DNA of 64,000 bases from Escherichia coli O157:H7 (GTDB lineage: Bacteria > Pseudomonadota > Gammaproteobacteria > Enterobacterales > Enterobacteriaceae): NCBI RefSeq assembly GCF_013167455.1, contig NZ_CP038328.1. The stretch is one strand, 5' to 3'. Numbering within the stretch: position 1 is the stretch's first letter; each line of letters starts with the position of its first letter. A program made the position numbers. Shown here one piece after another: positions 11,198 through 26,100 of the stretch.

Positions 11198-14100
11198 TAA
11201 ACTCGTACCAGTGCCGGATGGCGATGCTGTCCGGCCTGCTTATTAAGATTATCCGCTTTTTATTTTTTCACTTTACCTCCCCTCCCCCGCTGGTTTATTT
11301 AATGTTTACCCCCATAACCACATAATCGCGTTACACTATTTTAATAATTAAGACAGGGAGAAATAAAAATGCGCGTACTGGTTGTTGAAGACAATGCGTT
11401 GTTACGTCACCACCTTAAAGTTCAGATTCAGGATGCTGGTCATCAGGTCGATGATGCAGAAGATGCCAAAGAAGCCGATTATTATCTCAATGAACATTTA
11501 CCGGATATTGCGATTGTCGATCTCGGATTGCCAGACGAGGACGGTCTGTCACTGATTTGCCGCTGGCGTAGCAATGATGTTTCACTGCCGATTCTGGTAT
11601 TAACCGCCCGTGAAAGCTGGCAGGACAAAGTCGAAGTATTAAGTGCCGGTGCTGATGATTACGTGACTAAACCGTTTCATATTGAAGAGGTGATGGCGCG
11701 AATGCAGGCATTAATGCGGCGTAATAGCGGCCTGGCTTCACAGGTCATTTCGCTCCCCCCGTTTCAGGTTGATCTCTCTCGCCGTGAATTATCTATTAAT
11801 GACGAAGTGATCAAACTGACCGCGTTCGAATACACCATTATGGAAACGTTGATACGCAATAATGGCAAAGTGGTCAGCAAAGATTCGTTAATGCTACAAC
11901 TCTATCCGGATGCGGAGCTGCGGGAAAGCCATACCATTGATGTACTGATGGGACGTCTGCGCAAAAAAATTCAGGCACAATATCCGCAAGAAGTGATTAC
12001 TACCGTTCGCGGCCAGGGCTATTTGTTCGAATTGCGCTGATGAAAAAATTACTGCGTCTTTTTTTCCCGCTCTCGCTGCGGGTACGTTTTCTGTTGGCAA
12101 CGGCAGCGGTAGTACTGGTGCTTTCGCTTGCCTACGGAATGGTCGCGCTGATCGGTTATAGCGTCAGTTTCGATAAAACTACGTTTCGGCTGTTACGTGG
12201 CGAGAGCAATCTGTTCTATACCCTTGCGAAGTGGGAAAACAATAAGTTGCATGTCGAGTTACCCGAAAATATCGACAAGCAAAGCCCCACCATGACGCTA
12301 ATTTATGATGAGAACGGGCAGCTTTTATGGGCGCAACGTGACGTGCCCTGGCTGATGAAGATGATCCAGCCTGACTGGCTGAAATCGAATGGTTTTCATG
12401 AAATTGAAGCGGATGTTAACGATACCAGCCTCTTGCTGAGTGGAGATCATTCGATACAGCAACAGTTGCAGGAAGTGCGGGAAGATGATGACGACGCGGA
12501 GATGACCCACTCGGTGGCGGTAAACGTCTACCCGGCAACATCGCGGATGCCAAAGTTAACCATTGTGGTGGTGGATACCATTCCGGTGGAGCTAAAAAGT
12601 TCCTATATGGTCTGGAGCTGGTTTATCTATGTGCTCTCAGCCAATCTGCTGTTAGTGATCCCGCTGCTGTGGGTCGCCGCCTGGTGGAGTTTACGCCCCA
12701 TCGAAGCCCTGGCAAAAGAAGTCCGCGAACTGGAAGAACATAACCGCGAATTGCTCAATCCAGCCACAACGCGAGAACTGACCAGTCTGGTACGAAACCT
12801 GAACCGATTGTTAAAAAGTGAACGCGAACGTTACGACAAATATCGTACAACGCTCACCGACCTGACCCATAGTCTGAAAACGCCACTGGCGGTGCTGCAA
12901 AGTACGCTGCGTTCTCTACGTAGTGAAAAGATGAGCGTCAGTGATGCTGAACCGGTAATGCTGGAGCAAATCAGCCGCATTTCACAGCAAATTGGCTACT
13001 ACCTGCATCGTGCCAGTATGCACGGCGGGACATTGCTCAGCCGCGAGCTGCATCCGGTCGCCCCACTGCTGGACAATCTCACCTCGGCGCTGAACAAAGT
13101 GTATCAACGCAAAGGGGTCAATATCTCTCTCGATATTTCGCCAGAGATCAGCTTTGTCGGTGAGCAGAACGATTTTGTCGAGGTGATGGGCAATGTACTG
13201 GATAATGCCTGTAAATATTGCCTCGAGTTTGTCGAAATTTCTGCAAGGCAAACCGACGAGCATCTCTATATTGTGGTCGAGGATGATGGCCCCGGTATTC
13301 CATTAAGCAAGCGAGAGGTCATTTTCGACCGTGGTCAACGGGTTGATACTTTACGCCCTGGGCAAGGTGTGGGGCTGGCGGTAGCCCGCGAAATCACCAA
13401 GCAATATGAGGGTAAAATCGTCGCCGGAGAGAGCATGCTTGGCGGTGCGCGGATGGAGGTGATTTTTGGTCGCCAGCATTCTACGCCGAAAGATGAATAA
13501 ATATGTCCTTTTATCACCACAGCAAGGCAACCCATTGATTTAATTAAACAACCCACACTGCAAAAAGTGCTAAAAACAGCAAATTGACTACACCATTAAC
13601 TACACCGTTCGGTGCACTGTATGAAACAACGTGGAACAAATAGACACAAGAAATATACAGGCGGGTAATCTTTCCAGGGGGAAGCGCACCAATTCATGAG
13701 GGGCGTTAATGTCGATATGGGGATCCCCATAACGGGGCTACCGGATTTTTTTTCCGGTTAACTGTTAATCAGGCTGGTGGGTTTTACCTGTTCGGTAGGT
13801 GTTATGATTATCGTAATACCTTTCCCCCAGTGGGGTAAAAGCTCCAACCGTAACGATGTTCGTTGTGGTTGCCTTGATGGTCTGCGTGGTCATTATGACC
13901 ATTCAGAATATGAAGGGTGACGCTTCCGACTTCCTCAAATTGAGGTTTCCGAAAATATCAGCGGGTTAGCGATTAATCTGACCATTAATTAAACTACGAA
14001 AATTTCGTAGTTTGTGAATATATTCCGGCCTTCTGATTAACAGTCCTCAGATGTGAGGATGTAGCCAGCGCAATTTTGCGTTATCGGGAATATCAGCAAG

Positions 14101-23100: not shown

Positions 23101-26100
23101 AAAATATTGTTCCATGCCTTTTTTCTCGCTCTTTAAAGAGTGATTCGCTAGTGTATAAAAAACCAGTAACACATTAAAAATCAGCTACTTATAAATCCGT
23201 ACGCTTTTTCGCCTCTTGTTCGTAGTTGTTCCACATTGTTGCTCATTGTTGCACGTTGTATCTGTTCGCATATCCAGTATGCGCATACTGAAAAAACACG
23301 AAAAAAATTATTTTCTTCTGGCTACTGGTAGCGTGGTTACGTTTTCATGTGTTCCCGCCAGTATCCCTAACCGCTCCGTCCACATATCCAGCGCATTGCG
23401 TTTCGCATCCAGATAACGGGAATGATTATAAACTCGCTGCATTCCTGGCATCTGGTGGCCTGTAAGCTGCTCCACGACATGCGGATCAACGCCTAAATCG
23501 TTCAGCATGGTTGTAAAGGTGCGCCGGATGTCATGCAGTGACCAGTGAGGGTGATTAAGCCTCCTGTGCGCTAATCTTCCATACTGCGATACGCTGGCCT
23601 CCTGTTTCACTTCCCCCAGCAATAAGCCCGTGTGCCTGTTCTGCTCCACCAGCTGCGTGATGAACGGCAGTATTGCTTCCGGTATAGGCCGGAATATGGC
23701 TACCTTCGTTTTGCTGTGCTCCTTCGGAACGGTCCAGAGCATTTCGGTAAAATCCCACTCGCTGATCTCCGATAACCTCAGTTCTACCGTCCGGCATCCG
23801 AACACAATCAGGAGGCGGATTAACGCGATGTAGTAGGGGGAGAATATTTTTTTGTCCAGTGCCTGCAATAATTCGCCCAGTTCTTTGGTGCTTAAGACAC
23901 GCTCGCTTATATCCGGTTTTTTCCCAACGTCCGCCACACTCATATCATCAAGAACGTTGCTGATTGCATAGCGCCGCCTCCGGCAGAACTTAAGCGCCTG
24001 TTTGCACGTCTGTAGCAAGAATCCGGCAGTAACAGGCGTTCGCTTTGCCACCTGGTCAAAACAGGCCAGCCAGTGCCGTAGCTCGCATTTATCCAGCGGC
24101 ATAGCACCAATGTGCTGTATTACGTGATTATTAAGGCGCTTTTTCAGGGCGGCATAATCCACGCGGTTTTCCTTTGCGTACGACTCAAGCCAGTAGGTGA
24201 GCGCATCGCCAACCGTTACCGGCTTTAACGCTTCCTGTACGGTGTAATTAAGCTCATGACGTGGATTTTTCCCCTCTGCCAGCCATGCGCGACACTGGGC
24301 GGCTTTTTCCCTGGCTGATTTCAGGCTCAGATCAGGATAATTTCCCAGCTTAATGCGTTCCGGTGGTGCCCCCCTTCCCGTTCCGGCCCTGTAAGTGAAA
24401 TACCAGGTTAAAAGGCCACTGGTTGAATGCCTGACGCTCAGGTTTCCACCGTCATTAAGAAAGGCTGTTTTTTGGGCGGGTGTGCCGTTGATTTTCCTCA
24501 GCTGTGTATCGCTCAGTTTGTTAAGTGCTCTGCTCATAATTTTGATTCCGGTCATCACAATTAACTACACCATTAACTACACCGATCGTTGCACAAAGGG
24601 CTACAACGTGAAACAAGCTGGAACAAGGAAAATCACAAATCTGTTTATAATCAAAAATATAATGAACAATCTGAAACATTATGAAACGGCAAAAAACACT
24701 AATTGATAAAATATGTCCATACTTCACGCATTACGTTAAGCATCCGTTATAATCGGTTGCAGATACCAGCCTGTGGATGCTTAACATGGAATACCAACTC
24801 ACTCTTAACTGGCCCGATTTTCTTGAACGTCACTGGCAGAAACGCCCGGTGGTGTTAAAACGCGGCTTTAATAATTTTATTGACCCGATCTCTCCAGACG
24901 AGTTGGCGGGTCTGGCGATGGAAAGCGAAGTCGACAGTCGACTGGTCAGTCACCAGGATGGAAAATGGCAGGTCAGCCACGGTCCGTTCGAAAGCTACGA
25001 TCATCTCGGTGAAACTAACTGGTCATTGTTAGTGCAAGCAGTGAACCACTGGCATGAGCCGACCGCCGCGCTGATGCGACCGTTCCGTGAACTACCGGAC
25101 TGGCGTATTGATGATCTGATGATCTCTTTTTCTGTACCTGGCGGCGGCGTCGGCCCGCATCTCGATCAGTACGACGTGTTTATCATTCAGGGTACCGGAC
25201 GTCGTCGCTGGCGAGTGGGCGAGAAGCTGCAAATGAAACAGCACTGCCCACATCCGGATCTGTTACAGGTCGATCCGTTCGAAGCCATCATCGATGAAGA
25301 GCTGGAGCCTGGCGATATTCTTTATATTCCGCCAGGATTCCCGCATGAAGGCTACGCGCTGGAAAATGCGATGAACTATTCCGTGGGTTTTCGCGCGCCA
25401 AATACGCGGGAATTAATTAGCGGATTTGCCGATTATGTGCTGCAACGCGAACTGGGCGGCAACTACTACAGCGATCCTGATGTTCCACCTCGCGCTCATC
25501 CTGCGGACGTTCTGCCGCAAGAGATGGATAAACTGCGTGAGATGATGCTCGAATTGATCAACCAGCCGGAACACTTTAAGCAATGGTTTGGCGAGTTTAT
25601 ATCCCAGTCACGTCATGAACTGGATATCGCGCCGCCGGAGCCGCCTTATCAGCCAGATGAAATCTACGATGCGCTGAAACAAGGTGATGTGCTGGTGCGC
25701 CTGGGTGGTCTGCGCGTATTGCGCATTGGCGACGACGTGTATACCAATGGTGAGAAGATCGATTCCCCGCACCGTCCGGCACTGGATGCACTCGCCAGCA
25801 ACATTGCGCTGACTGCGGAGAATTTTGGCGATGCGCTGGAAGATCCGTCATTCCTCGCGATGCTCGCGGCGCTGGTCAATAGCGGGTATTGGTTCTTCGA
25901 AGGGTAAGTTTGGATTTAAGCCGGATGCGGCATCACATGCCGCATCCCTTTTCGCTTACTTCCGTTGCGCCGTTAACTCGGCAATACGGACGATCACCTG
26001 CACCGCTTTTTCCATACCTTCCAGAGTCACAAACTCATGCTTACCATGATAGTTGTAACCGCCAGTGAACAGGTTCGGGCACGGTAATCCCATAAACGAC

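Follow-up and report, generated by a model that had tools for sequence, protein, structure and literature searches.

In Escherichia coli, phage-inducible chromosomal islands (PICIs) have been catalogued in the interval between phoQ and ycfD (also named roxA). Table S1 of Fillol-Salom et al. (2018, ISME J; PMC6092414) places two elements there, EcCICFT073 and the O55:H7 element EcCIRM12579, gives rdgR and perC as accessory genes, and lists GGACATATTT as the att core for PICIs at this site. EcCICFT073 has been dissected both genetically and structurally. Its induction is mediated by AlpA and depends on a helper phage, it is packaged at cos, it depends on the phage small terminase subunit (TerS), and its packaged DNA is phage-sized; it has been induced experimentally, is transferred at high frequency and interferes with its helper. 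EcCIRM12579 is catalogued without experimental study, and we found no paper that names it in its text. Here we analyze an island in the phoQ-roxA interval of E. coli O157:H7 (assembly GCF_013167455.1, contig NZ_CP038328.1), within a stretch of 64,000 nucleotides that we refer to as the window. Judged from its sequence, the island is a real phage satellite, a classical Gram-negative PICI of the cos type. It represents EcCIRM12579 in O157:H7 and, carrying terS, is a sibling of EcCICFT073, its closest studied relative.

An island of the EcCIRM12579 type between phoQ and roxA

The island aligns with EcCIRM12579 (NC_017656.1) from end to end at 99.893% identity, with 10 mismatches and two indels in 11,212 alignment columns. 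The integrase, AlpA, RgdR, PerC, capsid, decoration and TerS proteins have the same protein accessions in the island and in RM12579 (for the integrase, the same WP accession). On the strength of this identity, and of an architecture shared with EcCIRM12579 and EcCICFT073, the island belongs to a described family and is effectively a described element. Element, att site and family have all been in print since 2018; what we report is a rediscovery and not a new kind of element. Strain TR01 and other O157:H7 genomes carry the island region at 100% identity to the window, and near-identical copies are found across the related O55:H7, O157:H7 and O145 lineages.

The genes phoQ (12040-13500) and roxA/ycfD (24777-25907) enclose the island. 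A first-pass annotation of the window, made by a model from the sequence without database searches, had proposed an accessory island here, and comparison with K-12 bears this out: the phoQ-roxA spacer of K-12 measures only 75 bp and the site is empty. At least 80% of the island is covered in 363 of 5426 complete genomes, and the terS cassette is present in 765 of the same set. Together with the empty K-12 site, the first of these counts speaks against an immobile core locus present in most E. coli. Hundreds of genomes share the compact architecture, which occupies several att sites.

The sequence features that define a cos-PICI are found in the island. Its size lies within about 8-15 kb, it occupies a specific attB with core repeats and has an empty site in other strains, int and alpA stand at one end of a nearly unidirectional gene order (one small open reading frame, ORF, apart, every gene lies on the minus strand), the replicase is its own and is followed by a 3' iteron origin, and lambda-type cosQ-cosN lies beside terS. 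Satellite status, as first proposed, is supported by the 99.9% identity to EcCIRM12579 and by collinearity with EcCICFT073, which has been mobilised. Close homology to EcCICFT073 likewise lends support to the predicted dependence on a lambda-like helper. A PHROG scan of all island ORFs yielded no portal, protease domain, large terminase subunit (TerL), tail or lysis genes, in agreement with the earlier reading that portal, protease, TerL and tail genes are missing. The profile searches suggested at that time have now been run, and the capsid, decoration and TerS proteins match Phage_cap_E, HDPD and Phage_Nu1, respectively. Capsid-forming PICIs (cf-PICIs) have a complete head and packaging module; the island has a capsid gene, a decoration gene, an ORF resembling the C-terminal part of lambda Nu3 (Nu3C) and terS only. 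The question left open by the first-pass annotation, whether the element matches a described PICI subfamily, can thus be answered: it is a cos-PICI, and the cf-PICI class is excluded. Searched with Rfam at E <= 1, the island gave no match, neither a P4 CI-like RNA nor any other known RNA, and PADLOC found no defence-system match among the island ORFs of unassigned function.

When the empty K-12 site is aligned to each end of the island, both junctions fall at the 10-bp core AAATATGTCC, and the published core GGACATATTT is the reverse complement of this core. A 21-bp direct repeat (13586-13606 and 24563-24583) had been taken as the boundary of the island. We considered it as the att site and rejected it on the evidence of the empty site, which locates both junctions in the 10-bp core; the repeat is internal, about 80 and 135 bp inside the island ends. 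It consists of a doublet of TTAACTACACC (Table 1), and such doublets are also present near the ends of related PICIs, both here and at another att site (cspD-clpS). Recurrence at islands of another target site indicates that the doublets go with the integrase and not with the target, and they are probably integrase arm-type sites. The att core that Table S1 of PMC6092414 gives for EcCIDI14, CGGTGTAGTTAATGGTGTAGTTAATT, reads as the reverse complement of our internal doublet of TTAACTACACC; this entry may describe arm-type repeats instead of the true crossover core.

A full-length small terminase between two cos sites

The packaging gene of the island encodes a TerS of the Nu1 family, as anticipated. 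The protein is 40% identical to lambda Nu1, 37% to gp1 of phage 21 and 44% to gp1 of N15, so that its closest phage relatives remain below 45%. The packaging proteins of the Rpp type are winged helix-turn-helix proteins of 139-154 aa, homologous to RppA, RppB or RppC, that lack a TerL-binding C-terminus, and the 180-aa island TerS does not fit this description. It has no detectable similarity to RppA (BLASTP E 3.4), and a PDB sequence search with it gave no meaningful match, RppC included. Because the conserved C-terminal half of Nu1 is retained, we infer that island TerS recruits and binds helper TerL directly, in a TerS swap like that in pathogenicity islands of Staphylococcus aureus (SaPIs), as opposed to Rpp-style heterodimerisation.

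The first-pass annotation described a lambda-identical cosN beside the terminase gene. The identity holds, as the 12-nt GGGCGGCGACCT is the lambda cohesive end; the single copy does not, as two cosQ-cosN sites are present, with the same cosN in both. The upstream site corresponds to the lambda position and precedes terS by about 145 bp. On its two sides terS has the arms of an inverted repeat of 76 nt with 91% complementarity (14416-14491 on the plus strand and 15281-15356 on the minus strand), and the two cos sites are convergent. The idea that the terS segment between these repeats is invertible was rejected: all 31 relatives with two cos sites keep the orientation of terS and the distances. 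The genome of strain TR01 has four further places with lambda-type cosQ-cosN.

To describe cos usage we took the window and 80 related loci from IMG/VR, and compared the 68 that have an upstream cos. In every one of these the upstream cos stands at a fixed distance from terS and the core GGTGGTGGTTTTGTTGTT is kept after cosN. TerS residues 14-45 are essentially invariant among the surveyed loci. Of the loci, 31 have a downstream cos and 24 with sufficient flank lack one. The downstream cosB falls into at least three classes: CAGATCC (class A, that of the window), CATGTCGG and CGTGTCGG, the type of phage 21. TerS proteins with identical N-terminal regions are accompanied by class A, by class B or by no downstream cos at all, and the PICI of ATCC 25922 has phage 21-type boxes despite a TerS that is 98% identical to that of the window. 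We therefore rejected the downstream R boxes as sites for island TerS, since three classes or none stand beside identical TerS N-termini. Class A matches the cosB that precedes terS-terL in a lambdoid prophage of strain GE3.

These patterns suggest that island TerS recognises its own upstream cos. The downstream cos, which has a complete cosB of the helper type, would be a swappable copy of a helper cos, usable by the unmodified terminase of the cognate helper. Two convergent cos sites would then be a form of bet-hedging, one constant site for the island's own TerS and one swappable cosB for the local helper, and we consider this more likely than a co-assembly of the head proteins with the portal and protease of a cognate helper (see below). 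Published work on EcCICFT073, in which cos1 is Rpp-dependent and essential and cos2 is not, agrees with this reading.

Murialdo and Feiss proposed that PICIs have an R3 site at bp ~48-65 after cosN. At this position (window 15268-15281) the terS-type islands read GGTGGTGGTGG, and in the Rpp-type EcCICFT073 (~11105-11122 of its locus) the same position reads the complementary CCACCACCACC. No lambda A- or B-like sequence was found next to terS in related loci, with the exception of helper genes at embedded copies. Several terS-carrying relatives (~5156-5941 in some loci) have no cosN nearby, and in these terS is followed by a fragment 98-99% identical to lambda E or by a lambda B-like fragment. 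Such flanks point to helper-embedded PICIs (HE-PICIs) that sit inside prophage capsid or portal genes, as in the 2023 HE-PICI paper.

Conserved head genes

The capsid and decoration proteins belong to the gpE and gpD families, as the first-pass annotation had it (Phage_cap_E and HDPD; Table 1), and the capsid protein is 97% identical to c1499 of EcCICFT073. The accompanying statement that the island lacks a scaffold gene probably needs revision, as the 137-aa ORF shares phrog_1999 with the C-terminal part of lambda Nu3. Lambda Nu3 matches this family through residues 117-200 (E 2.7e-26), which makes the link an indirect one that concerns the C-terminal part only; it comes from PHROG profiles alone, and the 137-aa ORF has no BLASTP match to lambda Nu3 and no Pfam match. 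Its product is 96% identical to the EcCICFT073 counterpart. The E-D module is kept next to terS in 77 of the 80 related loci. In this PICI family, the E-like, D-like and Nu3-like genes are cargo that has been conserved.

Replication, regulators and small ORFs

The predicted AAA+ replication protein with downstream iterons is confirmed by its AAA_25 domain and by six of the nine AGTGAG copies of the island, which lie in the 210 bp downstream of the gene. The National Center for Biotechnology Information annotation (PGAP) names the product 'helicase RepA family', and the iteron position agrees with the published rule that PICI origins lie 3' of the replicase. The single-stranded DNA-binding protein (SSB) is upheld by phrog_44 and TIGR00621, and the integrase and AlpA by phrog_1 and phrog_2790.

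A ribbon-helix-helix (RHH) regulator at a divergent operator had also been proposed. Two clear palindromes (22038-22084) do stand in front of the ORF; the RHH assignment is weak, with an Arc-like PHROG match at 1.5e-6 and a Pfam Arc match at E 0.04, and the ORF has no PGAP annotation. No homology was found between this putative RHH protein and its 57-aa positional counterpart in EcCICFT073. A 314-aa mechanical ORF on the minus strand (21753-22697) is an artefact; the Icd-like gene is confined to its final 65 codons. PGAP places an Icd-like pseudogene at 22104-22697, where it overlaps the oppositely oriented putative RHH ORF. The roughly 500 bp between the RHH ORF and alpA (22255-22755) have no Rfam match.

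RgdR (ECs1581) is a published regulator of the type III secretion system of the enterocyte effacement locus (LEE) in enterohaemorrhagic E. coli (PMC3378721), and the presence of RgdR and a PerC-family regulator on the island bears on the regulation of LEE virulence. The 93-aa ORF that ends the island is also found in CFT073, RM12579 and Sakai Sp7. The 154-aa early ORF (21094-21558) corresponds to two ORFs of 80 and 77 aa in EcCIRM12579 (4316-4781 in that locus), which one of the two indels has apparently fused. A terminator-like hairpin, AAAAAGCCGGA-N-TCCGGC, occurs in three copies that are 80-87% identical (15355-15384, 17628-17657 and 17992-18021); on the minus strand, one copy each follows the 137-aa gene, the 74-aa gene and the PerC gene.

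Table 1. Features of the island and their positions in the window (aa, amino acids)
Feature	Position	Strand	Evidence or remark
Island	13509..24718	-	11,210 bp including one core copy; allele of PICI EcCIRM12579
attL core AAATATGTCC	13499..13508	+	Overlaps phoQ stop codon; K-12 empty-site comparison
Left TTAACTACACC doublet	13584..13606	+	One mismatch in first copy; probable integrase arm-type site
Conserved ORF, 93 aa, last island gene	14101..14382	-	phrog_1561
cos_down	14416..14616	+	cosQ-like GGGTCCT, cosN 14447-14458, then lambda-style cosB
cos_down R boxes, CAGATCC-type	R3 ~14508-14525, R2 14548-14566, R1 14598-14616		Points to terS 3' end
TerS, Nu1 family, 180 aa, full length	14638..15180	-	Pfam Phage_Nu1 9.5e-22 (residues 33-148); phrog_57 8e-53
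cos_up	15262..15356	-	cosQ-like, cosN 15325-15314, then conserved GGTGGTGGTGG-TTTTGTTGTT at ~bp 45-65
Putative Nu3/gpC C-terminal homolog, 137 aa, scaffold-like	15386..15799	-	phrog_1999 1.7e-68
Decoration protein, gpD family	15812..16147	-	Pfam HDPD 6e-18; 36% identity to lambda D
Major capsid protein, gpE family	16160..17215	-	Pfam Phage_cap_E 6.8e-50; 43% identity to lambda E
Small conserved ORF (68-79 aa) directly upstream of capsid gene	17215..17454	-	phrog_3255
Conserved ORF, 74 aa	17673..17897	-	phrog_1957
PerC-family transcriptional regulator	18024..18296	-	PGAP on identical protein; phrog_994/activator families
SSB	18307..18717	-	phrog_44 4.5e-39; TIGR00621 above curated cut-off
Replication origin region, AGTGAG iterons	18960..19170	-	6 of 9 island AGTGAG copies
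Replication initiator/helicase (RepA family)	19166..20566	-	Pfam AAA_25 5.3e-43; phrog_2850 full length
RgdR (DUF4222, 99 aa)	20563..20862	-	RGD at residues 20-22; PGAP DUF4222
Three small early ORFs (77, 154, 84 aa)	20868..21802	-	Full-length matches, uncharacterised PHROG families
Icd-like protein, 65 aa	21753..21950	-	NF033153 5.2e-18, above cut-off; PGAP agrees
Two ATGGTAATTACCAT palindromes	22038..22084		Upstream of putative RHH ORF
Putative Arc/RHH regulator, 57 aa	22081..22254	+	Divergent from Icd-like operon
AlpA-type excisionase/activator	22755..22943	-	phrog_2790 2.5e-17
Tyrosine integrase	23308..24558	-	phrog_1 2.2e-76; PGAP start 24537, giving 409 aa
Right TTAACTACACC doublet	24561..24583	+	Probable integrase arm-type site
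attR core AAATATGTCC	24709..24718	+	K-12 empty-site comparison

Proposed life cycle and alternative explanations

By extension from EcCICFT073, a lambda-like helper would switch on AlpA, and Int and AlpA would excise the island at the AAATATGTCC core, which is itself observed in the window. The RepA-type helicase and SSB would replicate the island from the iteron origin to give concatemers; the two genes and the iterons are observed. Concatemers would be cut at lambda-type cos and packaged by helper TerL into phage-sized heads built by the helper, with about four island copies (44.8 kb) in each, after which helper tails would be added. We assign a probability of roughly 0.93 to this account taken as a whole, that is, to a cos-PICI with a helper-borne life cycle, the packaging scheme set out above and head genes that are cargo.

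Several points count against this account. Cos usage is read from conservation patterns that lack covariation, given how little TerS and the upstream cos vary. Island TerS could act like Rpp and form heterodimers with the TerS of the helper. Island-bearing O157 genomes hold no second copy of a class A cosB, and the cognate helper for the downstream cos may therefore not be resident in them, although TR01 has the four further cosQ-cosN places mentioned above. If the head genes are dispensable, their conservation is left unexplained. Finally, searches of the literature for the island by name and for E. coli PICIs of the terS type returned no functional study.

The first-pass annotation saw the head genes in another way, as the source of the island's own and perhaps smaller shell. 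Spelled out, island E-, D- and Nu3-like proteins would form such shells on a helper portal and protease and enclose unit-length DNA of 11 kb, which would make the island a partly capsid-forming satellite. The capsid, decoration and Nu3-like genes are indeed intact and of the right families, and the retention of the E-D module beside terS counts for this model. Size redirection by a capsid homolog is known from Ccm of SaPIbov5, and PmCI172, which makes small heads, is suspected to have a capsid homolog. Experiments with EcCICFT073, whose proteins are 96-97% identical to those of the island, do not support such a shell. With lambda, all packaged EcCICFT073 DNA is phage-sized (PMC6092414). When c1499 (capsid) or c1500 (decoration) was deleted, plaques did not return, so that interference stayed as it was, and transfer by resident prophages did not change (PMC6092414); in the transfer assays the cat marker was inserted in c1499 itself. 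The argument that 11 kb is far below the packaging range of lambda fails for concatemers: four island units come to 44,840 bp by calculation, or 92% of lambda length, which a lambda head accommodates. We regard island-built shells as quite improbable. It is slightly less improbable, though still doubtful, that the E/D/Nu3C-like trio cooperates with the portal and protease of a cognate lambdoid helper other than lambda or phi80 in island-specific or chimeric shells. Were this true, terS-type cos-PICIs would be an intermediate between classical PICIs and cf-PICIs.

Two further explanations deny the island the life cycle of a cos-PICI. On the first, which follows the historical annotation of such islands, a lambdoid prophage has left an immobile and decaying remnant with no current satellite life cycle. 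PGAP does mark one Icd-like pseudogene within it, most virion genes are absent, and near-identical copies in O55:H7, O157:H7 and O145 could mean vertical inheritance. However, the att cores, int, alpA, the replicase, the iterons and both cos sites are intact, the same compact architecture is maintained in other genomes and at other att sites, the EcCICFT073 sibling at the same site has been induced and transferred, and different O157:H7 strains have different PICI types at this attB; a remnant is thus very unlikely. The position of the integrase, AlpA, the Icd-like gene and the helicase-type replicase would also suit a P4-like satellite that exploits a P2-type helper. We give this least credence of all: no ORF matched families that carry a Sid, Psu or Delta annotation, cos is of the lambda type with the exact 12-nt end of lambda (P2 cos itself was not searched for), and the head genes are in the lambda E, D, Nu3 and Nu1 families and not in P2 families.

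A lambdoid prophage adjoins potB elsewhere in the window (~29000-64000; TR01 1497066-1531300). It has an HNH-TerS-TerL arrangement, a capsid gene of 1.9 kb, a frameshifted portal gene and tail genes, and it also carries the type III effector genes nleL, espN and espK and a copy of the insertion sequence IS2. Its terminase is not of the lambda Nu1/A type, so it is no obvious packaging helper for the island.

Comparison with known systems

The island agrees with EcCIRM12579 in attB (ycfD-phoQ), att core and size (11.2 kb). It shares attB and gene order with EcCICFT073, and the two have in common the integrase, AlpA, RgdR, SSB, PerC, the capsid and decoration proteins and the 137-aa protein. In both, two convergent cosQ-cosN sites flank the packaging gene, which is rppA in EcCICFT073 and terS in the island. 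The differences lie in particular modules. EcCICFT073 has a 585-aa replicase of the primase type, whereas the island has a 466-aa RepA/AAA_25 helicase; RppA (144 aa) has no TerL-binding tail, whereas the island has a full-length TerS of the Nu1 family; the early regulator position holds YlcI/YnfO and an unrelated 57-aa ORF in the former and the putative RHH protein in the latter; and the element that follows cosN at the upstream cos is CCACCACCACC in EcCICFT073 and GGTGGTGGTGG in the island. The conservation of head genes that are dispensable in the laboratory, and a second cos that mimics that of a helper, refine a known system and do not define a new one.

Among more distant satellites, SaPIs that use pac offer a parallel in a satellite TerS that redirects helper TerL to satellite DNA, as would be the case in the island, and Ccm of SaPIbov5 offers one in a satellite-borne homolog of a capsid protein. 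Size redirection of the kind brought about by Ccm was not seen with the E. coli sibling EcCICFT073, and no Ppi-like partner was identified in the island. SaPIs also differ from the island in that they belong to Gram-positive hosts and use pac/headful packaging or cos of the HK97 type.

The cf-PICI EcCIEDL933, which is Sakai Sp7, CP-933C or O-island 51, occupies the same attB in the same serotype. In O157:H7 this attB holds either the island or the 15.5-kb Sp7 (Sakai NC_002695.2 1594711-1610171), and the replicases and late modules of the two differ. Sp7 and the island have closely related integrase, RgdR and SSB, a PerC-family protein (pchE in Sp7), the 93-aa ORF and the TTAACTACACC doublets. 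EcCIEDL933 carries a capsid of the HK97 type, a prohead protease, a portal, a head-tail adaptor, TerS and TerL; it makes its own small capsids and borrows only tails from its helper, whereas the island has E-, D-, Nu3C- and Nu1-like genes and lambda-type cos. A single O157:H7 attB that is filled by a cos-PICI or by the prototype cf-PICI provides a natural comparison for the swapping of late modules.

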